A stretch of DNA of 64,000 bases from Octopus vulgaris (taxonomy: Eukaryota), in assembly GCA_951406725.2 (NCBI GenBank), contig OX597824.1, positions 90,458,001-90,522,000 on the forward strand, given 5' to 3'. How positions within the stretch are numbered: position 1 is the first letter of the stretch; every line of letters begins with the position of its first letter. This document shows positions 51,844 through 63,995 of this stretch, one piece after another. A program made the position numbers and the translations under genes. A model generated the notes under the pieces. The model was given only the letters and a program-made list of their open reading frames with translations. It was not told the DNA's origin and did no database searches.

Positions 51844-51898
<55 letters not shown>

Positions 51899-51901
<3 letters not shown>

Positions 51902-52344
51902 TGACGTATTTTTGCCATTTCAATATAGCTAACCCCTAAGGGTGGATGCTACTGTAGCTTTTAGCCCCAGGAGGACACACTCCTCCAGCTGGCCATAGAC
52001 ACACTTTCTGTGTCCTGTCAGTATTTGCAAAGGGAAGTCATCCTTCCCGTCTTCAACTTATGATACACACGGACTCGAGTTTCGAGGTATTGACCTCTCG
52101 TCAGCGTGTGACAATCATAGTTGTCGGCGAGAATTAGATTTCCTTCACAAATACTTATACTTTTTCCAGCGTTCACTGTCGCTGATATTGAAAAAGTGAA
52201 ATCAAACAATGATAAATATCAAAGTGAGTTATATACAGTAGCGGTAACACATCGTGACGTATTTTTGCCATTTCAATATGGCTAACCCCTAAGGGTGGAT
52301 GCTACTGTAGTTTTTCGCCCCAGGAGGACACACTCCTCCAGCTG
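51899..52344 (-). mobile_element. Retrozyme-like non-autonomous retroelement: 353-bp monomer, about 1.26 tandem copies
   Basis: ~93-bp direct repeats starting TCGTGACGTATTTTTGCC at 51899 and 52252 (3 substitutions), no ORF, central canonical hammerhead, microsatellite flanks. Confidence 0.82.
52066..52110 (-). ncRNA. Canonical type-I hammerhead ribozyme
   Basis: CACACG-CTGACGA-GAGGT-CAAT-ACCTC-GAAA-CTCGAG-TC-CGTGTG: all core nucleotides, perfect 6-bp stem I, 5-bp stem II, palindromic helix III, GUC triplet. Confidence 0.92.
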
Positions 52345-52629
52345 TGTGTATGTACGTATGTATGAATGTATGCATGTATGTATGTCTGTATGTAAGTCAT
52401 AATATATCTTATATAAAATCCATTCTGTGTGTGTGTGTGCGTGTCTTCTCGGATCTCGAGCATCCTCCATCCGATTGCGCTCGAATTTGATATGTTGATA
52501 CCGATGGTATCAGGGCGTGTATAAGTCTTGAAAAAAATTGCAAAAATTGATTCCAAGTGAGAATGCGATCGATAAAGCCGTGAGAAATCGCTTTTCTTTG
52601 GAATAGAATAAAAGTCTATCTTTATTTCT

Positions 52630-63596: not shown

Positions 63597-63995
63597 GCGT
63601 GGACGTGGTCTTGTGGTAAGAAGCTTGCTTCCCAACCATATGGACCCGGGTTCAGTCCCGCTGCGTGGTACTTTCGTCAAGTGTCTTCTATAGCCTCGGT
63701 CGGATCGAGGCCATAGCAGAGGATACTTGACCGACGTGTGCGTGAATATAGTGGATGGAAACTGAAAGAAGCCCGTCGTATATATTCTTGTATTCGTTTA
63801 CTTGTTTCAGTAGTTTGAATGTGGCCATACTGGAGCACCGCCTTTAGTCGAATCAGTTGACCCCTGGACTTATTCTTTGTAAGCCTTCAACTTATTCTAT
63901 TGGTCAATTTTGCCAAACCGCTAAGTTACCGGGAAGTAAACAAACCAACATCGGTTGTCAAGCGATGGTGGGCGGACAACACAGACACAAATACA
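63597..63995. mobile_element. SINE family A 5' half (+) joined to an inverted 3' half (-)
   Basis: GGCGTGGACGTGG...GAAAGAAGCCCGTCGTATATA then TTCTTGTATTCGTTTACTTGTTTCAGT... Confidence 0.82.

Follow-up and report, generated by a model that had tools for sequence, protein, structure and literature searches.

Metazoan non-LTR retrozymes, described from coral, mussel (~350-390 bp) and axolotl (331/353 nt), are ORF-less head-to-tail units of a few hundred bases (150-450 bp by definition) with one type I hammerhead each, a GC content under 50%, no LTR, PBS or PPT and target duplications of more than 4 bp, and the amphibian forms have a short palindromic helix III (PMC7229834). The octopus family described below shares all of these traits; the definition of metazoan non-LTR retrozymes also includes linear and circular monomer RNA, whereas the octopus family is described here from genomic DNA. 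With the plant LTR retrozymes, as summarised in PMC7229834, it has in common non-autonomy, a hammerhead and a proposed circular intermediate, but none of their other traits applies to it, namely a type III motif, LTRs, PBS/PPT (their absence judged here from end structure), 4-bp duplications and a Gypsy helper. Mobilisation of animal retrozymes by Penelope-like elements (PLEs) and a circular template for more-than-unit copies have both been proposed as hypotheses (PMC7229834, PMC4209133). A study of vertebrate retrozymes, according to which the mobilisation mechanism 'remains to be elucidated', treats them as non-autonomous PLE derivatives and so comes to the same conclusion of PLE dependence as we do (10.64898/2026.07.22.740005). 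PLEs themselves have a tandem and inverted structure with a tail often on one end only (PMC8557442); two internal reverse transcription start sites flank this tail, both target strands are cut and extended, targets are AT-rich and a protein dimer is predicted (PMC11167929).

The element studied here lies in a window of 64,000 nucleotides of the Octopus vulgaris genome (contig OX597824.1, positions 90,458,001 to 90,522,000), where a preliminary description had reported a retrozyme-like tandem unit with a hammerhead. We numbered the unit q1-q353 on the hammerhead (minus) strand, with q1 at 52252, which places the hammerhead at q143-187 and the predicted cut at q181/182; the insertion then reads q262-353, q1-353 and (TA)n (Table 1). 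The sequence-level observations of that description could all be reproduced. From 52110 to 52066 the minus strand reads CACACG, CTGACGA, GAGGT, CAAT, ACCTC, GAAA, CTCGAG, TC and CGTGTG, the GUC triplet at 52074-52072 puts the predicted cleavage where it had been placed, the direct repeat (51898-51991 and 52251-52344) has a spacing of 353 bp and 3 substitutions, and the flanks are the two simple repeats that had been named.

Table 1. Coordinates of the element and its flanks in the window
Feature	Position	Strand	Remarks
Whole insertion	51900..52344	-	445 nt, 1.26 units, single arm, 5'-truncated; locus L001
Full 353-nt unit	51900..52252	-	q1-q353 on hammerhead strand; 3' end 51900/51901 = 'short' fixed end of the family
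Partial upstream unit	52253..52344	-	q262-353; variable 5' truncation point at 52344
Type I hammerhead	52066..52110	-	Stem I (6 bp); CUGACGA core; stem II (5 bp), closed by a CAAU loop; GAAA; helix III, short; GUC
Predicted self-cleavage bond	52071..52072	-	After C 52072; q181/q182; from the hammerhead consensus
Self-complementary ACUCGAGU	52073..52080	-	Monomer: 2 bp and 4-nt loop; double hammerhead: 8-bp helix
Long hairpin extending stem I	52021..52156	-	Hammerhead at tip; compensatory changes across subfamilies in inner part
'Tail' segment q1-48	52205..52252	-	Between the two fixed 3' ends; internal in the window copy
(TA)n target array	51849..51899		At the fixed 3' end; (TA)25
(TG)/(TATG)n	52345..52390		5' junction

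The features of a type I hammerhead are present both in the sequence and in the Rfam alignment, with the core CUGANGA, GAAA, UH and three stems, open at stem I. Rfam Hammerhead_1 (RF00163) covers the tabulated motif with its whole model (32.2 bits, E 4.2e-6), a score just below the gathering score of 34, and a scan of the window at that threshold accordingly did not report it. Matches to a loose hammerhead pattern (17 vs 5.8 +/- 4.4) are by themselves no significant excess in the window, so the call is based on the paired stems, the Rfam match and the family. The 353-nt unit folds at z = -5.8, with 0 of 100 shuffles equally stable, and no stop-to-stop frame of >=150 aa overlaps the element, in agreement with its earlier description as ORF-less. 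Given this fold and the 439 exact cores in the genome (see below), the hammerhead-bearing unit is not a chance motif. Separately, a TATA-like stretch ~45 nt upstream of the hammerhead (52152-52159, minus strand; q94-101) is kept in all four subfamilies and may be an internal promoter.

The genome assembly, which is microsatellite-rich and comprises 2.8 Gb, contains 439 matches to the exact 33-nt core, compared with 0 for the reversed control, and 912 matches to a relaxed core that keeps the palindrome; some of the latter belong to a hammerhead family unrelated to this one. With the 445-nt element as query there were 3242 first-look candidates, the best 40 of which were scored and found to be 98-99% identical over the full length. 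These genome-wide matches provide the dispersed copies expected of a retrozyme, and the family as a whole bears out the claim of tandem units that each contain one type I hammerhead. The window copy had been called young, and it differs from the family majority by ~1%. Three older subfamilies, about 89%, 80-85% and 70-75% identical, likewise consist of ORF-less tandem units of ~350 nt with the same ends. In its testable genomic features, then, the window element is a metazoan non-LTR retrozyme.

Across 20 copies of the four subfamilies 91.9% of cells pair, against at most 56.9% in slid controls, and 5 of the 13 hammerhead pairs are changed on both sides, a number above 499-500 of 500 shuffles, which ignore the relatedness of copies, and above all slid controls. 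The stem that extends stem I adds four further compensatory pairs (columns 38-41), and a G-C first pair of stem II is found in the young subfamily only; the next subfamily has U-A there, and in the two oldest the position is mostly not paired. This pattern suggests that the RNA fold is under selection and that the older subfamilies have kept it by compensatory changes. We did not count as evidence the lower substitution rate of the core (4/2064 vs 252/46621), since most loci were picked for an exact core, and the small number of 5' ends within the hammerhead suffers from the same bias.

Insertion structure was assessed in a sample of 58 loci, which are the distinct C1-C3 sites with an exact core among the 100 of 439 matches listed (59 sites minus one duplicate), and in 32 further loci from similarity-ranked searches, biased to long copies ending at q353, which bring the young loci to 90. 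Left out of the counts were overlapping loci of one site and two duplicates, L147 (the mirror duplicate of L142) and L029 (of L028); these pairs of the same structure, 1 Mb apart on C1 and 6.3 kb apart on C9, respectively, are probably segmental duplications or assembly duplicates. In the 58-locus sample, among the matches listed, 80 of 87 outer 3' ends cluster at two positions separated by ~45 nt, a 'short' end at q352/353 and a 'tail' end at q42-53 of the next unit, and (TA)n directly follows nearly all of these fixed ends. The 87 arm 5' ends, in contrast, are scattered from q1 to q335. Random circular permutation, for which the preliminary description had proposed to compare the copies, is thus not what the family displays, the 3' end being fixed at two sites and the 5' end alone varying. 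The predicted cleavage site is read through in 113 segments, while 1 arm stops nearby. As a separate observation, of the copies L186 and L184 one lacks q116-183 and the other starts at q183, adjoining the predicted cut; such ends may be rare copies of cleaved RNA.

Half of the sampled loci (29/58, among the matches listed) have two arms, head to head with their 3' ends outward, and 25 of these 29 combine one short with one tail end, the remaining 4 having one irregular end. Over all 90 young loci the same pairing occurs in 42 of 48 two-arm loci, or in 43 if the structure of the cut locus L005 is taken from L006/L007, and no locus has two tails. Single-arm young loci end short in 34 cases, in a tail in 4 and otherwise in 4. 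Among nine two-orientation loci of the 80-85% subfamily, a sample chosen for the tail, 5 followed the rule, 2 had two tails and 2 were unclear. Either arm can be the longer one, for which reason we rejected fold-back self-priming as the source of the inverted arms. The junctions between arms mostly lie within -8 to +8 nt, and of 11 loci checked for a flank other than TA, 3 had target-site duplications of 12-14 bp. At least two tandem hammerheads are present in 22 of the 58 loci (among the matches listed), in arrays of up to 6 head-to-tail units, and wherever an arm exceeds one unit, the sequence runs on into the unit before it, up to 6 times, and never into coding sequence.

A fixed 3' end with an optional tail, variable 5' truncation, tandem and inverted arms and an AT-rich or microsatellite target together form the signature of Penelope-like mobilisation. 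The same partial-tandem and inverted, 5'-truncated structure with an optional tail at one end is found in Neptune-type endonuclease-positive PLEs, as are two internal reverse transcription start sites, AT-rich or microsatellite targets and a dimer-type hammerhead near the 3' end; unlike these elements, the octopus unit has no ORF, repeats every 353 nt and has a tail of ~45-48 nt instead of 30-40 (PMC8557442, PMC4209133, PMC11167929). The 3' ends fixed at two sites, the inverted arms and the (TA)n targeting also set the octopus family apart from the retrozymes in the passages of PMC7229834 compared here, where none of them appears, the words 'inverted' and 'microsatellite' occurring 0 times in the main text. 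We consider it highly probable that a Penelope-type machinery mobilises this non-autonomous unit, and on balance we favour a monomer, either circular or copied over and over, as its main template. The reading as a whole, which we hold to be likely, is that the locus in the window belongs to a tandem element of 353 nt, a non-LTR retrozyme with a hammerhead and no ORF, and that this 5'-truncated copy was likely inserted into (TA)n by a Penelope-like RT-endonuclease that was probably copying a circular RNA monomer.

The evidence on the template comes from polymorphisms within and between loci. At six common polymorphic sites, units of the same locus are discordant in 21 of 1401 comparisons and units of opposite arms in 6 of 614, compared with 37027 of 135133 (27%) for different loci. 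Ten haplotypes do not vary within their respective loci, and 5 of 79 loci are mosaic at the common sites. Of 230 rare variants in 88 loci, 192 occur in one unit, 30 in all covering units and 8 in a subset of them; at sites covered by at least three units the respective numbers are 98, 8 and 8. We searched for three locus-fixed variants genome-wide. All 6 matches of 127A are at L173, where they make up all six units, four in one arm and two in the other; 203G has 7 matches, 5 in the L022 array and 2 on other haplotypes; and 135G has 6, with 3 at L243 in both arms and 3 in single copies, 2 of which have the same haplotype. No source array for any of the three exists anywhere in this assembly, which is what repeated copying of one monomer predicts. 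The earlier suggestion of a slightly more than unit-length copy from a circular or multimeric template is supported by this haplotype pattern and by variant 127A. A 353-nt back-joint is also present in contigs of two large sequencing runs of unknown kind; tandem DNA gives the same joint, so it says nothing about circles.

These data can also be read with an uncleaved linear multimeric transcript as the template, the element and the Penelope-type helper being the same, the hammerhead a passenger or acting later, and circles not an intermediate. Eight rare variants are shared by a subset of units, 7 of them spanning both arms, L173 varies at q161 (161G) in the same order in both arms, and L240 mixes common haplotypes, all of which agrees with a multimer, as does the anole PLE, for which unprocessed RNA was the dominant substrate (PMC11167929). 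Such a source, however, must be no shorter than the daughter array and carry the same variant in every unit, and it is this source that the assembly lacks for 127A, 203G and 135G; moreover, the ten haplotypes are uniform within loci, and truncating copying alone would not be expected to regenerate arrays of 5-6 units. We therefore consider a linear multimer an unlikely main template. Given the subset variants and the mosaic loci, some arrays either were copied from non-identical units or were altered later, and departures from a pure single-circle model could reflect multimeric templates, circle switching, conversion or assembly polishing. Possible alternatives to a circle are a source absent from this assembly, which represents one haplotype, and a cleaved linear monomer on which the enzyme jumps repeatedly.

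Arrays could, instead, have been amplified or homogenised in place from single inserted units, by unequal crossover or gene conversion as in minisatellites. Inverted arms can convert each other, which would speak for such a process, and single-arm arrays such as L022 are compatible with it. It is also the route proposed for vertebrate retrozymes (10.64898/2026.07.22.740005). The private variants argue against it, since 9 of 21 rare locus-fixed variants are common to oppositely oriented arms, as is 127A, and of the 8 subset variants just 1 is limited to a single arm. Strong conversion, too, is hard to reconcile with the 192 of 230 variants that remain in a single unit, and amplification in place is, in our judgement, distinctly improbable. 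A side observation concerns the type of change: A>G on the RNA strand accounts for 7 of 30 locus-fixed and 13 of 192 unit-private variants in the 88 young loci (Fisher p = 0.009; some events are non-independent). This weakly hints at template change at the RNA level, by RT error or A-to-I editing; the ratio of A>G to T>C among locus-fixed variants, 7:4, is not significant.

The genome contains many families with RT and GIY-YIG domains and a cysteine motif before the nuclease, which by the description in PMC8557442 appear to be of Neptune type. In family A a frame of 781 aa is open in 16 fetched copies and one of 771 aa in a 17th (L061-L077, e.g. C16:20834500-20842500), and all 17 3' ends have a hammerhead-like motif whose core starts with UUGAUAA instead of CUGANGA, some with a ~40-nt tail; by age and target this family is a candidate helper. 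The ORF-bearing families A and C likewise each have two 3' ends, separated by about 40-45 nt and followed by (TA)n, in agreement with the PLE tails described in PMC11167929 and PMC8557442. Beside these, a C-rich, divergent PLE family (L180:4260-6000, minus strand; 27-30% to families A/B) has a variant hammerhead core near its 3' end and shares the (TA)n array of its insertion with a retrozyme copy.

The 353-nt family might, finally, be merely the 5'-truncated 3' end (pseudo-LTR) of an ordinary autonomous Penelope-like element. The tail, the inverted arm, the (TA)n target and the palindromic hammerhead are all PLE features (PMC8557442, PMC4209133), and at L188 a retrozyme copy sits 260 nt behind a PLE ORF. 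There, however, it is joined to an old family C copy, and 24 other family C copies continue with an unrelated end of their own. A 3' end of this kind is also at odds with long arms that always enter the previous unit, up to 6 units and never coding sequence, and with three older subfamilies that are ORF-less ~350-nt units as well. No RT and GIY-YIG ORF lies within the 353-nt unit, which is thus not an autonomous Penelope-like element, and no ORF-bearing element sharing its end turned up in 66 fetched GIY-YIG loci, in family C or in searches with older subfamilies and related cores. The GIY-YIG family search scored the best 150 of 6136 candidates, and the helper search also took in 40 fetched stretches, 36 of them around GIY-YIG matches. 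L078, L071, L180, L182, L188, L279 and L302 were considered as ORF-bearing parents and rejected as neighbours or nested insertions. For the 353-nt family a pseudo-LTR origin is already largely refuted, and we give it very little weight. An LTR-type retrozyme, a solo LTR or a chance hammerhead look-alike has a negligible probability, nothing beyond the short terminal direct repeat pointing that way, against ends that are not TG...CA (the LTR-type ends named earlier as counter-evidence are missing from the genomic copies), a variable 5' end, duplications of 12-14 bp instead of 4 bp, a type I motif and 439 exact cores with covarying relatives.

The link to PLEs differs in kind from that in vertebrate retrozymes, where it is based on co-occurrence and pLTR homology, with local array growth suggested (10.64898/2026.07.22.740005). 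In the octopus it is the insertion signature; the unit does not match the terminal sequences of the ORF-bearing families that were sampled in the same genome, no homologous pLTR was found in the 66 fetched GIY-YIG loci (150 of 6136 candidates scored) or in family C, and the haplotypes favour array formation during reverse transcription.

Folding models bear on how monomers would be released. In monomer, circle and window element alike, the CUGA core is base-paired to the helix III palindrome in the predicted ground state, and the active single hammerhead fold is calculated to lie 5.9 kcal/mol above it. Helix III had been thought more stable as a dimer and, in keeping with this, a double hammerhead in the modelled dimer is 6.9 kcal/mol better than two single ones, yet 4.9 kcal/mol above the ground state. 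Release of a monomer from a tandem transcript needs two ribozymes. With its single hammerhead, the window copy would consequently not release a 353-nt monomer, and the ~353-nt circle that had been predicted from this locus would be expected instead from sister loci with at least two tandem hammerheads (22/58). The predicted energetics fit cleavage in multimers combined with stable monomers, as for palindromic type I motifs (PMC4209133). In vitro, 1 of 9 frog retrozyme dimers cleaved (10.64898/2026.07.22.740005), and for the anole PLE cleavage was unnecessary for insertion (PMC11167929).

Together, these observations are consistent with the following course of events. At sister loci the genomic pattern observed is one of arrays with as many as 6 head-to-tail units, each with one hammerhead. 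By analogy with known retrozymes, transcripts of these loci would cleave themselves, most readily in the double-hammerhead form, and the resulting 353-nt monomers would be closed by a host ligase. Judging from the genomic pattern, a Neptune-type protein would nick both strands of AT-rich DNA, the nicks being staggered by about 12-13 nt, and reverse transcription would start inside the RNA, at q352/353 or at q44-49 of the next unit. Each nicked strand would prime at a different site and the enzyme would round the template for 0.2-6 units, after which the two cDNAs would join head to head at short microhomologies; where a single arm is completed, it would usually be the short-end arm, as in the window copy. 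The latter, with one hammerhead, would be a dead end. A bolder version, to which we give somewhat less than even chances, is that the small circular RNA is the real template, that a Penelope-type protein dimer primes from both nicked strands, each at its own fixed site, the two being separated by 45 nt on one and the same 353-nt circle, which the dimer then travels round, and that the lineage has been independent, living as an RNA parasite over four or more waves without a resident parent. A dimer rolling round a circle would explain tandem arrays, inverted arms and the one-sided tail in one step.

The class of element is already known, and what is added here is genomic evidence on helper and template. 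We found no publication on this family, on the pairing of arm ends or on within-array haplotypes, in a literature coverage that was partial, and supplements may list such elements. A young family thus bears the marks of both earlier hypotheses in its genomic DNA: its protein-free unit has the Penelope tail and inverted arms, a short end is paired with a tail end almost without exception, and each locus has one haplotype across both arms. On a practical level, it provides a 353-nt substrate with mapped start sites, together with candidate intact helper proteins from the same genome, for use in the existing in vitro PLE assay.

Some further features were noted in passing. A separate hammerhead family (L266-L271, e.g. 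C1:158505308) has the same CUCGAG palindrome and a shorter stem II but no match to the 353-nt unit; two of its copies sit just behind CCAAT- and TATA-like motifs. Elsewhere in the window, a weak tRNA-like match (26569-26643, plus strand) belongs to an ordinary repeat, as do six copies of a SINE-like motif at 6189-6214, 6488-6513, 12907-12932, 16110-16135, 22642-22667 and 63866-63891.
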